From positions 1 to 47,018 of IMG/VR virus record IMGVR_UViG_3300043478_000062: a stretch of 47,018 nucleotides of DNA; one strand, 5' to 3'. The notes beneath the pieces are model-generated. The model worked only from the letters and a program-made list of their open reading frames with translations. It was not told the DNA's origin and did not search any database. The stretch's first letter is position 1; every line of letters starts with the position of its first letter. Shown here piece by piece: positions 22,278 through 47,018 of the stretch. Made by a program: the position numbers and the translations under genes. This DNA comes from a virus. Lineage: Duplodnaviria; Caudoviricetes.

Positions 22278-22782
22278 AGAGGTCGCAGACCTGGTCATAG
22301 ACCAGCTTGACGACCTCCGCGCCCGCACCCACCGCCTTGCAGTGGTCGGGCAGATCGCCTTCCCGCAGGCCCCGGAGACGACCCATACGGTCGTCCTGGG
22401 GCCCTTCGGCGCCCGGGGCATCCTGGACAGCCAGGAGAAGTTCTTGAAAGCCGTACAGGGCGGCTCAGCCGCCCGCAGGGCGGGACAGGATCTCGCCTGG
22501 GACACAAAGACCGGCCGCGGCCGGGGCCGCTTCATGCTGGCCCCGGCATTCCAGCGGCCGCGGGCCGCCTGGGAGTTTTTCCGCCAGCCGGAACCCGAGA
22601 TCCCGGCACGCTTCGCATGGATCGCGGAGTCAATCCGGCGCTGGGAAGCCGGAGGCTGGAAGGCCGGATACGGCCCCGTCTGCCACTGCGGCGCACAGCG
22701 CCCGGGGCGGATCAACCGCACGTCCGCCGGGGGCCTGGCCCCCACGGGGCCCTGCCCCGTACACGACAGGGAGGGCGCATGA
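22207..22782 (+). CDS. hypothetical protein (191 aa) with C-terminal CxC...CPVH
   Basis: ORF with good codon usage; overlaps the HTH gene tail. Confidence 0.7.
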   Translation: MSAREIAAVAAILTDPENRERTAEEVADLVIDQLDDLRARTHRLAVVGQIAFPQAPETTHTVVLGPFGARGILDSQEKFLKAVQGGSAARRAGQDLAWDTKTGRGRGRFMLAPAFQRPRAAWEFFRQPEPEIPARFAWIAESIRRWEAGGWKAGYGPVCHCGAQRPGRINRTSAGGLAPTGPCPVHDREGA

Positions 22783-22949
22783 CTGGCATACCCACCCCGG
22801 ACGAAGCCCGGGAGTGGCTCAAGGAGCACGAGAGCGAACTCGACCTCACGGTCATCTGGACGGAGACCGACGCTCCCGGCTCCGCGGAGCGGCATCTGAA
22901 GCTGCTGAAAATGCTTTTCGGTCCCGCGGAGCCACCCAGAGCGGCATAA
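22779..22949 (+). CDS. small protein upstream of the integrase (56 aa), possible directionality factor
   Basis: GGGAGG RBS; ATGA coupling; function from position only. Confidence 0.6.
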   Translation: MTGIPTPDEAREWLKEHESELDLTVIWTETDAPGSAERHLKLLKMLFGPAEPPRAA

Positions 22950-23016
22950 TCCGCCGCATGGGTGACCCCGGCAGCGCAGCAACGCCCCGGGGTCCGGCCA
23001 GTCGGAAGGGACTGAC

Positions 23017-24729
23017 ATGAACAAGGCTCTCACGGAAGCGCTCGACGCGATCGGCACCTATCAGCGCCCGCGCCTGCGGGCCGTGCTCTATCTGCGCGTC
23101 TCCACGGAGGAGCAGGCAGAAGGCTACGGCCTCACTTTCGGCGAGAAGCGCGGACTGCGCTACATCGGCTCCAAGAACTGGGAGCACGTCGGGACCTACA
23201 AAGACCCGGGCGTCAGCGGCAGCCTTCAGGCTGCCGACAGGCCCGACCTGAAACGGCTCATGGAAGCCGCCCCGGGCAAGGGCTTCGACGTAGTCGTAGT
23301 CCCCGAATCCCGCGTCATCGGACGCACCGACCGGGCGTACTACTCCTGGGTGTGGGAGCTGGAAGATCAGGGCATCTTCGTCGCCGACGCCAAGACCGGC
23401 ATGGACAACACCTCCGAAGAGGGCAAGGAAGCCATGCGGGAGGAGGCGCACTACGCCTTCAAGGAATACATCCGCATCCGGACCCGGACCCAGAACGGGG
23501 TCCAGGAAAAAGCCCTGGAGGGCGGCTACGCAGGCGGCAAGCCGAAGTTCGGCTACCGCGTGGAGAACCTGGGCAAGAAGAGCCTGTCCCGGCTTGTGCC
23601 GGACGAGTGCGACGGCAGGGAGGCGTGCGCCTACAAAGACGGCGCATGCACCGCCCGCCACGAGGCGGACACCCTGCGCATCGCGCGCAGACTCGTGCTG
23701 GAGCACGAGGGCGCATGGCACGACGCAGCCCTGGCGCTGAACGCGCAGGGGCGCACCACCAGGACCGGAAAGCCCTGGACGGGCGGAGACCTGCGTATCG
23801 TCCTGATGCGCGAAGACCTGCACAAAGCACAGGTCCGCTTCCGGAAAGTCCGCAAGAGCAAGGAGACCGCCCGCGAGAGCGTCACCATCAAGCTCACGCC
23901 GATCTTCTCCGAAGAGGAGATAGCGGAGCTGAAGGCCGCAGTGCGGCCCCGGCGGCGCATCACCAAGCGGGCCGAGGGCTTCATGCTCTCCGGCCGCATC
24001 GACTCACTGTGCGGCTCCTACTACGTAGGCCGCGGCAAGCACTACATGTGCCGGATGCGCACGCACAAGAATGCGTGCGGCTGCCCCGCCGTCCCGGCGA
24101 GCATCACTGACGCCTGGGCCTGGGGCCACGTGCAGAGCCTGCTCATGGACGCCGAACGCATGAAGAAGCTGGCCCGGGAACAGGCGGGACTGAGCGCGGG
24201 CAGCCGTGCCGACTATCTGAAGCGCCTGGCGGACCTCGACCGCCAGATCGAGGAGCAAACCGAGACCATCGACCTGACCATGACCACCGCCGCCCGCGCG
24301 GCGGCCCGGCGCAAGCTCCCCCGGGAGGAGGCCGAGAAAGCCGTGGAACGGGCCGTCAGGCCCCTGGAAAAGGAACTGGCAGCCCTGGGCAGGCAGCGGG
24401 CCCAGGTAGCCGCCTGGCAGGCGGAGACAGAGACCGCCAGCCGGCAGGCGGAGGCCCTTCAGGCCCTGGCCGCCGATGCACAGCACCAGCTGGACAGCTT
24501 CACGCCCCGCCAGAAGGCGGACCTCCTGGGTCTGCTGAGTCTCCGGGTTGCCGTGAAGGGCCAGCGGTCGGCTCCGTCGACCCGGAGCCGGGTTGTTCTT
24601 CCCCCGATGGTGATGACCGGGGGTGTTCATCTCGGCGCCCTTGGAGCCATTGGCGACACTGGGATGTCTTGCCCTTGGGTAAGCACCTCGCCTGTCATTG
24701 TTCGGTTCTCGATGGCGGTAGCCGCCTGA
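23017..24729 (+). CDS. int: large serine recombinase (integrase)
   Basis: YLRVSTEEQ catalytic Ser motif; DPGVSG...RPDL; SRVIGR; recombinase domain; Zn ribbon; coiled coil. Confidence 0.95.
   Translation: MNKALTEALDAIGTYQRPRLRAVLYLRVSTEEQAEGYGLTFGEKRGLRYIGSKNWEHVGTYKDPGVSGSLQAADRPDLKRLMEAAPGKGFDVVVVPESRVIGRTDRAYYSWVWELEDQGIFVADAKTGMDNTSEEGKEAMREEAHYAFKEYIRIRTRTQNGVQEKALEGGYAGGKPKFGYRVENLGKKSLSRLVPDECDGREACAYKDGACTARHEADTLRIARRLVLEHEGAWHDAALALNAQGRTTRTGKPWTGGDLRIVLMREDLHKAQVRFRKVRKSKETARESVTIKLTPIFSEEEIAELKAAVRPRRRITKRAEGFMLSGRIDSLCGSYYVGRGKHYMCRMRTHKNACGCPAVPASITDAWAWGHVQSLLMDAERMKKLAREQAGLSAGSRADYLKRLADLDRQIEEQTETIDLTMTTAARAAARRKLPREEAEKAVERAVRPLEKELAALGRQRAQVAAWQAETETASRQAEALQALAADAQHQLDSFTPRQKADLLGLLSLRVAVKGQRSAPSTRSRVVLPPMVMTGGVHLGALGAIGDTGMSCPWVSTSPVIVRFSMAVAA
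24655..24696. other. candidate attP within the integrase 3' end (central TT at 24675-24676)
   Basis: Dyad symmetry about TT at positions 1-3, 5-7 and 17-20 (GACA...CTTGCCC TT GGGTAAG...TGTC); local drop in GC and codon bias. Confidence 0.5.
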
Positions 24730-24742
24730 CCTGCAACAATCC

Positions 24743-24770
24743 AAGGCCCACCGATCCGGGTGGGCCTTTT
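24743..24770 (+). terminator. intrinsic terminator after the integrase
   Basis: AAGGCCCACC/GGTGGGCCTT followed by TT. Confidence 0.8.
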
Positions 24771-43961: not shown

Positions 43962-43996
43962 GCGAAGTCCCCGACCGGAGTCGGGGGCTAAGTCGC
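43962..43996. terminator. hairpin between convergent genes
   Basis: CCCCGAC-CGGA-GTCGGGG. Confidence 0.55.
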
Positions 43997-44914
43997 CCTG
44001 TACCCCGCCGACAGGCCGCCCGCGGCTCCGCCGCTGGCCCCGGAGAACAGGGCCCGCTCGGAGGTGACCAGGCCGCGCTTCCTGGCGGTGGAGTCGGCAC
44101 TCGTGCCGAATACGGACTGCTCCTCCTCCACCTGGCCGAAGGTCGTGCCGAACCGCGCCGCCAGCGCCTGGAGATTCGGCAGCTCCTCGGCGACCTGCTG
44201 GAAGCCCTGGCTGGCCTGGGACTGGGAGAAGCCCTGTGTGACGTAGTCCTCCATGCGCTGCCGGTCGCTCAGCAGGCCCCTGCGGGCCGCCTCGGCACCG
44301 AAGGCCGCAGCGGCCTCCTGCTTCTGGAGCAGCGGCAAAGCCTTGCCCTGGTCCAGGAAGTACGCATTGATGTGGGCGTCATCGACGCCGTAATAGGCGG
44401 CGAGCTGGGCTTTGGTGTACGCGTCCGCCTGGGTGGTGCTGGCCACCGCCAGGTCCACCCGGGACTTGATCTCTGTCGGCGACACGTCGCCGCCGATCCA
44501 GTTCGCATAATCCGAAGGCGAGTCGTAGAAGCTGGCCGGCAGGCCGGCAGAGGCCATGATCTGGCGGTAACTGGCCTCGGTGGCCAGGTAGTCGGCCGGG
44601 TTGAGCACGGCCAGGCCCTGCTTCTTGCGCAGCTCGTTGCCCGCAAAGCGGGTCTTGTACTCCGCGGTCTCCTGGAGCAGGAGCGAGATCGTATCCGCGC
44701 TGTACCCGTTCTGGATGTAACTGAAGATCTTGCCCGCCAGCGTGCCCAGGCCGTAGCTGGTGAACAGGGCGTTCAGGGCCACAAAGGCGTCCCTGTTCGC
44801 CCCGGTGAGCTGGCTCTCGAAGGACGGCGCGGGAGGCGGGGGGCGCGAGATCCCCGACTCGCCCGAGGCCTTCGGTGGCCCCGTGGACTCCGCGGCCAGC
44901 ACCGGTCCGCTCAT
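43988..44914 (-). CDS. putative internal virion protein (308 aa)
   Basis: Last gene of the ejection-protein block; helical, Ala-rich. Confidence 0.7.
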   Translation of the reverse strand: MSGPVLAAESTGPPKASGESGISRPPPPAPSFESQLTGANRDAFVALNALFTSYGLGTLAGKIFSYIQNGYSADTISLLLQETAEYKTRFAGNELRKKQGLAVLNPADYLATEASYRQIMASAGLPASFYDSPSDYANWIGGDVSPTEIKSRVDLAVASTTQADAYTKAQLAAYYGVDDAHINAYFLDQGKALPLLQKQEAAAAFGAEAARRGLLSDRQRMEDYVTQGFSQSQASQGFQQVAEELPNLQALAARFGTTFGQVEEEQSVFGTSADSTARKRGLVTSERALFSGASGGAAGGLSAGYRAT

Positions 44915-46180
44915 CTAGAACACCATTCCCCACTGCTGAAGCACCTGGTGTGCGGTCTGCGTCGCACTGTCCTGCGCGTTCTGCGTCTTCTTCCAGAGCG
45001 GGTCCGCCCGGAGGTCGTTTTCGAACTGCCAGATGCTGTACGCCTGACCGCCCTTGTTGGCGGTCATGGCCTTGGCCACATGGCCGTTGAACAGATCCAC
45101 GGAGCTGTCCGGCACCTCCAGGATGCCGGAAACGGCCCTGATGTACGGGCTGGCCAGGTCCATGACGTTCTGGCCCGCCCTGATCTGGTCGGCGAAGGCC
45201 GAGTACTTCGCCGCCGCCTGCTTCCGGATAGCCGCCTCTGCGGCCTCCATGGTGTCCCGCCCGGACGCCACGCGCCGGGCCTCGGTGAAGTACCAGGTGT
45301 TGTACTTCATGCCATTGAGGTACGCCAGACTGTGGATCTTGTCGAAGGCTTCCCCGGCTTCGCCCAGCATGGTCTGGCCGTGCATGGTCACCTGGGCGCC
45401 CAGCCAGTCCTTGACCCGCGCCTCGGACCAGCCGAGCGCAAGCGAGTTGTACACCGCGGAGTTCAGGAGCTGCTTGTCGTGGGCAGTTCCCCGCATCAGG
45501 TCGCCCGCGCCGACCTGTACGGCCAGGGCGTTGACCGAGTACAGGCTCTGCTGCTGCTTCTGCTTCCAGGTGGCCGGGTCGGTGTACCGCAGCGTGATGT
45601 ACTGCCGCAGCGTGTCGGACTGTGTGGACCACCACTTGGTGTTTTTCAGCTTCGCCGTGAAGACATCGGCGGACCAGGAGCCCGCCACCGCCTTCTTGAA
45701 CAGGGCCTTCAGCTCCTTAGAGCTGTTGATCAGGCCCGCACTCAGGCCGTAGGAGTCGGCCAGAGCACTGGTGTCCAGTGGTGCAATCGTTCCACCCACG
45801 GCTGCTCCGCCTCCTGCGCTGGTCCCGCCGGAGGCGGCCAGGACCTTGTTGACGTACTGGCGGACGGTGTTGCCGCCGTCCGAGGCCCGGCTGTTCGGGT
45901 TCGGCTGCCCGCTGAACCACATGCTGGCGGCGCCTTCGGCGCCGTACTTCCTGAAGTAGCCGCCCAGGATCACCTGGGCCACCTTGTCCTGCGCGGACCT
46001 GGATGCCCGGAACTGCTGCCAGGTCATCGCATACCCCAGTGCCCTCTTCGTCCAGGACGGGATATTCGCCTTCATGACCTGGTAGGCGCCCACGGCGCCG
46101 ATGGAGTTCACTACGGAGTAGTTCCCGCCGGACTCCACCTGGCGGATACCCGCCAGGAGCTGGGCCAGGGTCAGGGCCAT
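44915..46180 (-). CDS. lysozyme-like/lytic transglycosylase virion protein (421 aa)
   Basis: IRQVESGGNY...GAVGAYQVM catalytic Glu motif; YVNKV; C-terminal domain paralogous to the NlpC/P60 protein. Confidence 0.85.
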   Translation of the reverse strand: MALTLAQLLAGIRQVESGGNYSVVNSIGAVGAYQVMKANIPSWTKRALGYAMTWQQFRASRSAQDKVAQVILGGYFRKYGAEGAASMWFSGQPNPNSRASDGGNTVRQYVNKVLAASGGTSAGGGAAVGGTIAPLDTSALADSYGLSAGLINSSKELKALFKKAVAGSWSADVFTAKLKNTKWWSTQSDTLRQYITLRYTDPATWKQKQQQSLYSVNALAVQVGAGDLMRGTAHDKQLLNSAVYNSLALGWSEARVKDWLGAQVTMHGQTMLGEAGEAFDKIHSLAYLNGMKYNTWYFTEARRVASGRDTMEAAEAAIRKQAAAKYSAFADQIRAGQNVMDLASPYIRAVSGILEVPDSSVDLFNGHVAKAMTANKGGQAYSIWQFENDLRADPLWKKTQNAQDSATQTAHQVLQQWGMVF

Positions 46181-47018
46181 CTAGGTCACCAGCCCCATGG
46201 ACTGGAGCACCTGGTGCCCGACCTGGATGGTGTGGTCCTGGGCATTGCGGGTCTTGCGCCAGGCCGGGTCAGCGCGCAGGGCGCCCTGGTAGTCCGACAG
46301 GGACATGGGGGCCGGCAGGCCCTGCCGGTTGGCCTGGTTCAGGGCGGCCCGCACCCTGGGGTGCCAGACCGTCACATCGGTCTCGGGCAGCTCCAGCTGC
46401 TGGGCCGTCATCTGGATGTAGGGCTGCGCGATGTCGCGCATCGTGGCACCGGCAGTGATCTGCTCGGCGAAGCCGGGATAGGTGGAAATGGCCTGCTGGC
46501 GCAGGCCGTCCTGGATCTGCTGCATGCTGGTCAGGCCGCGCTCCAGGTACGCGGCCGAGTTCTTGGCCGTCTGGTCGGAGACGCGTACGCCCTGGTCGTA
46601 GGCGTAGCCGGTGATCTGCTGATAGGCGGCCCCGGCCTGGCCGCCGAGCGTGTGGTCCTTGCGGAAGGTGACGTACTGGCCCAGGAAGTTCTGGATCTGG
46701 GGGTCGTTCCACTGGTAGTCCACCATGTTCTTGGCAAGCTGCTGCGCCTGCTTGCCGGACAGGATGGCGCCCATCTTCACCGCGGCCTCGGAGGCCGCCG
46801 CCTGGGCGGCGGACAGCTCCGCCTTGTACGTGGCCGGGTCCGTCTTGGCCATGACCTGCGCCTTACGCGCAGAGTCCGAATTGTCTTTCCACCATTTGGT
46901 GTTTTTCAGGTGGGACGTGAACACGTCCGGGGTCCACTGCTCCGCAACGGCGGAGCCCAGGAGCTTCATCAGCTCCGGCTGGGACTTGAAGAACGCGTAG
47001 GACATGCCGTACTCGTCC
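46181..47018 (-). CDS. NlpC/P60 virion protein, 3' part (C-terminal domain paralogous to 44915..46180)
   Basis: ORF 46181..47005 is the in-frame continuation across the circular junction. Confidence 0.88.
   Translation of the reverse strand, partial: DEYGMSYAFFKSQPELMKLLGSAVAEQWTPDVFTSHLKNTKWWKDNSDSARKAQVMAKTDPATYKAELSAAQAAASEAAVKMGAILSGKQAQQLAKNMVDYQWNDPQIQNFLGQYVTFRKDHTLGGQAGAAYQQITGYAYDQGVRVSDQTAKNSAAYLERGLTSMQQIQDGLRQQAISTYPGFAEQITAGATMRDIAQPYIQMTAQQLELPETDVTVWHPRVRAALNQANRQGLPAPMSLSDYQGALRADPAWRKTRNAQDHTIQVGHQVLQSMGLVT
46892..47018. repeat. 127-bp terminal direct repeat, right copy
   Basis: Identical to 1-127; unique genome length 46,891 bp. Confidence 0.95.

Follow-up and report, generated by a model that had tools for sequence, protein, structure and literature searches.

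An attachment site inside the integrase gene and a candidate degron switch in a family of phage serine integrases

Does integration rewrite the C-terminus of the enzyme that carries it out, and could it remove a degradation signal in doing so? The question is raised by the integrase gene of the DNA analysed here (the window), which is the whole 47,018-bp virus record IMGVR_UViG_3300043478_000062. The window is circular, because the two ends of the record overlap by 127 nt, and it is a complete circular temperate phage, with genes for portal, terminase, major head, endolysin, helicase, primase and a WhiB-like protein and with a single integrase among the 31 proteins scanned. Its relatives point to a Streptomyces-type host. 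A frame at 24980-25960 matches a WhiB domain together with an HNH-like C-terminal piece, and two adjacent minus-strand genes at 43988-47005, the second of which lies at the circular junction, match one family, phrog_6654.

The integrase matches Pfam Resolvase (PF00239) over residues 22-170 (E 5.5e-19) and a PHROG integrase family (E 2e-53), and a profile search of solved structures returned it as a large serine recombinase. Foldseek with the modelled protein retrieved the SPbeta, Bxb1 and phiC31 integrases (E 2e-16 to 5e-14). The catalytic serine motif (Y25, R27, V28, S29) is invariant over the 97 aligned rows of the family, cysteines C332, C345, C354 and C356 are conserved, and the model places helices at 379-494. 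The Pfam Recombinase and Zn-ribbon models gave no match to the window integrase itself and did match its relatives; taken together, a resolvase domain, a Recombinase domain, a zinc ribbon and a coiled coil can be recognised. Sequence and model thus assign the protein to the large serine integrases, and recombination activity is predicted.

A first-pass annotation had placed a candidate attP near the 3' end of this gene and proposed that the integrase edits its own C-terminus. The protein does end in VRFSMAVAA, as stated there, and is the sole one with a terminal Ala-Ala (AA) among 69 heuristically called ORFs, a set from which the 56-aa ORF just upstream is absent; the AA end (PPRAA) described for that small protein is likewise present. 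The features of the locus are collected in Table 1.

Table 1. Features at the integrase locus of the window
Feature	Coordinates	Strand	Basis
Conserved 56-aa protein just upstream of int, AA end, candidate recombination directionality factor (RDF)	22779..22949	+	family, position
Large serine integrase, 570 aa, phage (attP-intact) form	23017..24729	+	Pfam, PHROG, fold
Putative attP, about 50 bp (outer limits are estimates), imperfect dyad over codons 545-562	24650..24701	.	dyad, register, low GC3
Putative central dinucleotide TT (crossover), 54 nt before the last stop base	24675..24676	.	register of relatives, P0006
Exchangeable C-terminal tail, 17 codons and the stop, last residues FSMAVAA, candidate Clp degron	24676..24729	+	family ends, tmRNA tags, fold
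Conserved TGACC(T/A)GC motif over the int stop, goes with the tail to the far junction	24727..24740	+	intact tails, far junctions
Hairpin, 10-bp perfect stem and four T, likely terminator	24743..24770	+	similar hairpins after intact tails

Integration breakpoints in lysogens of relatives

The integrase family is present in 34 of 401 sampled Streptomyces genomes. Junctions were mapped with no assumption about a tail, in up to 70 kb upstream of the integrases, which gave 20 assembled Streptomycetaceae regions with elements of 2.8 to 55 kb. Intact host alleles came from five genomes lacking a strong integrase match, with element-carrying alleles excluded and both host halves located; this search covered the 15 regions that were mapped, 14 of them through intact alleles and G009 separately, at 7 host sites. 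In every one of the 15, host sequence begins inside the integrase frame and the missing end of the integrase sits at the far junction, usually followed by the TGACC(T/A)GC motif. The crossover therefore lies within the coding sequence and gives phage and prophage forms different C-termini in 15 of the 20 regions, at 7 sites, and in 5 further dprA records.

The position of the break is also regular. It falls 53 or 54 nt before the last stop base in eight of the 15 mapped regions (G006, G009, G011, G012, G167, G198, G285 and G312), the tie in the register of G285 being settled by homology with G002 and G011, and those of G011, G285 and one G001 allele being set from the shared core. Four longer-tailed integrases have an offset of 66-69 and two decayed remnants offsets of 48 and 45; one region has lost the stop, so that its offset is undefined. 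One G312 candidate junction was rejected as a duplicated host segment. The dyad centre falls within the shared core of the mapped junctions, and the 53-54 nt register recurs in integrases that insert at several host sites and have only about 40-45% identity. In one natural set, comprising a free virus contig, both lysogen junctions and the empty allele, all sequences switch at one TT, at offset 53. In these relatives, then, the attachment site is inside the int gene and tails are exchanged at the DNA level. The proposal that the integrase edits its own C-terminus is borne out by them, since the integrated form ends in host-derived sequence and the AA-type tail is found at the other junction; the predicted break into a host-derived C-terminus is seen in the same register in their lysogens, but not in a lysogen of the window's own clade.

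The exchange can also reach the host gene. In all five dprA lysogen records, the reading frame of the host PF02481 fragment stays open into the phage tail and takes up its AA end, while the integrase continues into the remainder of the host protein. In four of five acyl-CoA-synthetase lysogens the tail extends the host fragment without a frameshift, and two of these have an AA end. Pfam confirmed integrase fusions to AMP-binding, EF-Tu, thioesterase and CoA-binding domains. Six sites are co-oriented and in frame, three are out of frame and many are antisense; the reciprocal swap is not universal, and selection for in-frame fusions is only suggested, because such fusions are easier to notice. 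With a GC-frame test of orientation, 25 loci were left without a placed motif and some sites gave ambiguous results. At L337 the integrase joins a host gene of the same orientation in frame, and a stop comes directly after the junction. Five elements (G014, G017, G020, G022 and G235) carry, near the far junction, an inverted copy, about 70% identical, of the disrupted host gene, which is likely to be a replacement allele.

Sequences beyond the tail take part in the rearrangement. The motif, in the longer form TGACC(T/A)GC...AAA, lies over the stop in most intact loci and is mostly absent from the dprA clade; the lysogen regions also have it elsewhere, at places that resemble mobile elements. 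The hairpin after the window's int gene was skipped by the terminator scan, which requires five T; integration would separate this likely terminator from the gene.

The exchanged tail as a candidate degron

If tails are exchanged on integration, free and integrated forms should end differently. Among the 120 matches listed of the 240 homologues found, with source labels assigned by hand, AA, TA or AS ends occur in 51 of 70 metagenome-only proteins versus 1 of 50 proteins of NCBI source (p = 1e-16); a crude baseline is 36 AA ends per 1254 long frames. Among 20 virus or metagenome loci chosen from the top matches, duplicates excluded, 16 end in AA or AS, and three of the other four records end at or just after the integrase. 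In genomes, 75 distinct loci were found, 68 with frames of at least 600 aa, and only one of the 68 has an AA end, on a 4.2-kb MAG contig. The position profile of the homologues was motif-filtered and is not independent evidence. On a tree built from the first 500 residues (112 rows, after 9 fragments or frameshifted rows were dropped), the tail states require 22 changes, 18 of them forced by starred branches, whereas shuffles need 37. There is thus some clustering of states as well, but the two are interleaved on the tree, so that the tail is a state rather than a lineage.

Two features of the family sit beside this pattern. An insert of about 95 aa (about residues 550-630) that matches DUF4096, the N-terminal domain of IS4/5 transposases, precedes the last strand in most homologues, including P0014 and P0015, and is absent from the window's clade. 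As a candidate host fusion it was rejected, being internal and found with both tail states. A tail-like strand without AA is kept in 3 of the 68 genome loci, and one more was recognised by eye (L334/L478). These loci (L010, L012, L020 and L334/L478) are chromosomal contigs whose integrase has a tail-like end but no terminal AA; they may be tandem copies, may travel as cargo of other elements or may have decayed.

What would such a tail do? The tmRNA tags of two of the host genomes end in FALAA, and the window tail ends in MAVAA. By sequence and by one model, in which its confidence is low, the tail has the features of an ssrA-like degron, namely a free hydrophobic-Ala-Ala C-terminus that appears unstructured: in the modelled window integrase the last strand spans 531-535, the fold stops at residue 535, short of the crossover, and residues 538-565 have pLDDT <50 and no secondary structure. 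Swapped-tail sequences make up 41 of the 97 rows of the alignment behind the model, which can lower confidence in the tail. In Streptomyces, the accessible text of PMC7142297 describes degradation of sigma-AntA by ClpXP via a C-terminal Ala-Ala, abolished by a change to Asp-Asp, and that of a review (PMC9775585) has similar C-terminal reports for ClgR and Lon. In one clade whose tail is 19 residues longer, the terminal AA is kept with other codons, and the dyad lies 111 nt from the stop. From the sequence and these published Clp data, it is likely that the tail destabilises the protein.

Several observations count against a degron or a switch. Most Ala codons of the tail are GCC, and they lie right next to a conserved DNA motif; a hydrophobic strand that would be superfluous for a simple tag is kept as well, and three or four chromosomal integrase copies keep a tail-like end. 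Only 4 of the 15 mapped far-junction tails end in AA, and those of three full-size prophages of 47-55 kb end in LVA, ATL and VAP; lying outside the gene while integrated, such tails may drift. Four cultured Streptomyces phage integrases, about 25-30% identical and with a similar last strand, end in PTR, LTV, STR and KTA.

The small protein upstream is the other candidate component. Its family of 27 aligned members has a conserved W...LLxxLF motif and is found just upstream of these integrases, with an AA end in 11 of 20 motif-picked relatives. No match to it was found in Pfam, PHROG or the Atlas; RDFs, according to the accessible text of PMC12286644, lack conserved sequence. From its position, it is likely to be the RDF.

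Taken as a whole, a switch in which the integrase sheds a Clp tag on integration is probably the right account of this locus. The free phage would make an AA-tagged integrase, short-lived through Clp turnover, and entry into lysogeny would then depend on host protease activity. Crossover at the TT would replace the last 17 residues by host-encoded sequence, leaving in the prophage an untagged, longer-lived integrase that would await the small upstream protein, the likely RDF, which is itself often AA-ended and may be unstable. Excision would restore tag and terminator and so limit re-integration. An extension, which we advance tentatively and think rather doubtful, is that the transfer runs both ways: the tag would come off the integrase and, where the site is co-oriented and in frame (dprA, acyl-CoA synthetase), go onto the truncated host protein, so that the fragment is cleared, and the tagged RDF would be the only unstable trigger of excision in a lysogeny switch set by Clp.

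Two other explanations accept the site within the gene. The first, which we regard as unlikely, takes the tail with its last beta-strand as a structural or activity element, so that the swap would alter activity or directionality and the Ala-Ala would be secondary. A hydrophobic strand does precede the AA in most intact tails and is present in tails without AA, and in Mx8 a comparable swap changes specificity while activity remains (accessible text of PMC6070905). However, the low-confidence stretch of the model has no predicted structure to offer, the AA is terminal even in the longer-tailed clade, and ends of very different length are tolerated in integrated forms, between an immediate stop and more than 150 host residues.

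The second, somewhat less probable still, is genome compaction: the tag would limit the integrase during lytic growth, its loss on integration would be an unselected by-product, and terminator loss and antisense host transcription may matter more. Integrated tails are indeed arbitrary and often derive from the antisense strand of a host gene, the hairpin departs with the tail, and BPs-type integrases bear a tag that is never removed (accessible text of PMC9262239). A by-product, however, would sit uneasily with a register that is kept across integrases this divergent and across several host sites. The degron switch remains the reading that we favour.

The putative attachment site in the window

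In the window, the imperfect dyad about TT 24675-24676 described by the first-pass annotation has the complementary pairs given there (1-3, 5-7 and 17-20) and one more, pair 13, for 11 of 20. It is the best centre within 24600-24729. Its reading as a serine-integrase site agrees with the register of the family, but scores of at least 11/20 occur at 679 window positions (1.4%), and taken alone the dyad is weak and not beyond chance. When scores are added up for the window together with three close relatives, the TT centre comes first of 380, with a score of 48 against a mean of 22.3 (sd 5.6), the sequences being related, so that no p-value applies. Across 11 intact loci at a greater distance, the top rank among 375 goes to dyad offset 53, and offset 54 comes fourth. 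Close relatives have a stronger dyad at the window's TT centre, with 14/20 in L245; the 73% relative L165 has CT instead of TT as central dinucleotide, in the same register.

The TT straddles codons 553/554 and is followed by 17 residues and the stop, in keeping with the earlier estimate of about 18 codons. The decay of codon bias reported there is also real: GC3 is 455/520 in codons 1-520 versus 33/50 in codons 521-570 (Fisher p = 2e-4), and GC3 is lower in the last 30 codons than in the body in 14 of 14 intact loci. A natural truncation falls at the same point. P0121, the integrase of L245, is a 78%-identical relative of the window's, and P0006, a member of its cluster, is an exact 552-aa prefix of it that breaks off with the codon to which the first T of the TT belongs; this end may be a stop or a contig break, a discontinuity at the TT in either case. 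Short dyad attP and attB sites with a common central dinucleotide are found in the relatives, and we infer the same for the window. From register, dyad and truncated variant, the window attP very probably lies inside the 3' end of int, with the crossover at TT 24675-24676. That it lies elsewhere, for example in the gap 22950-23016, with the internal dyad a relic or chance, is very improbable: although the window dyad is weak, that gap holds two centres likewise at 11/20 and no junction of the window phage was found, all 15 mapped relatives break inside the int gene, P0006 ends at the TT and L245 shares the centre.

Searches for a lysogen of the window's clade returned none in protein-pattern scans of genome contigs (best 56% over a segment), none by a DNA-pattern scan and none in 401 genomes (best 53%); one further genome scan covered 8 of 64 parts. 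Sequencing runs compared with L245 gave low-depth contigs and no junction, the same searches found no attB for this clade, and a strict tail pattern found nothing near integrases in 22 genomes. A guessed attB core was rejected, its matches being to a recurring host palindrome in which the outer arms are missing. This palindrome, with TTACTC and GAGTAA arms and often in tandem, recurs in 50 of 101 genomes (L520-L549) and is probably the operator of a host regulator.

Further afield, L504, L505 and L247 (Hank144, phiScoe1 and a virus contig) have AC-centred dyads 59, 65 and 68 nt before the stop, with 14-15 of 24 pairs in the same register, whose sequence suggests that the design reaches cultured phages; in the Tefunt and phiHau3 integrases no dyad stood out.

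Relation to known systems and significance

In BPs-type mycobacteriophages, integration removes a tag from the repressor while the integrases keep theirs (accessible text of PMC9262239 and PMC8092301). BPs has its attP in the repressor gene, a tyrosine integrase with a retained tag and an attB over tRNA genes, whereas in the present family the attP is in a serine integrase gene, it is the integrase's own tag that is removed, and relatives target protein-coding genes. Accordingly, breakpoints lie in the integrase gene, not a repressor gene, in 15 of 15 mapped relatives, and the Pfam-matched host sites are protein genes, with no tyrosine integrase or tRNA site. What the two share, at the level of sequence, is a tag removed by integration, here on the integrase instead of the repressor.

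Mx8 Int is a tyrosine recombinase, and its swapped part is much longer. The likeness lies in an attP inside int, a new 3' end on integration and an enzyme that is still active; the reported effect is altered specificity, and a degron is not mentioned in the accessible text (PMC6070905). DsiB of the Dehalococcoides ssrA islands is, like the present enzymes, a large serine recombinase with a gene that overlaps attP/attL at its 3' end, and its authors suggest that it is perhaps fully functional only on the circular form. It differs in targeting the tmRNA gene and in belonging to a two-recombinase island, not a phage, and the accessible text describes no conserved degron tail or exchange of tails with a host gene (PMC3146451).

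Bxb1, SPbeta SprA, phiC31, SV1 and Samy resemble the family in domain order, fold, short dyad sites with a central dinucleotide and insertion into protein-coding genes. As far as the accessible sources go, however, attP lies beside the gene in SV1 (downstream), Samy (upstream) and phiC31 (promoter region), so that phage and prophage make the same protein. The design is not described in the accessible text of PMC5499854, PMC13626063, PMC12884075 or PMC7721734. In the accessible literature, which consisted mostly of titles and abstracts, we found no serine integrase that removes its own degron or tags a host fragment. An attP within the integrase and a degron removed by integration are both known; here they would be joined in one self-acting gene.

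The integrase class concerned is the one most used in genome engineering. Integrases of this family mined from prophages end in host-derived tails and differ from the native phage enzyme, and some database entries are integrase-host fusions. Vectors that keep the native arrangement would alter their integrase on insertion, and its stability could be affected. If the transfer of the tag to the host side is true, the cost of disrupting a gene would be limited by a novel means, a degron placed on the broken host protein.
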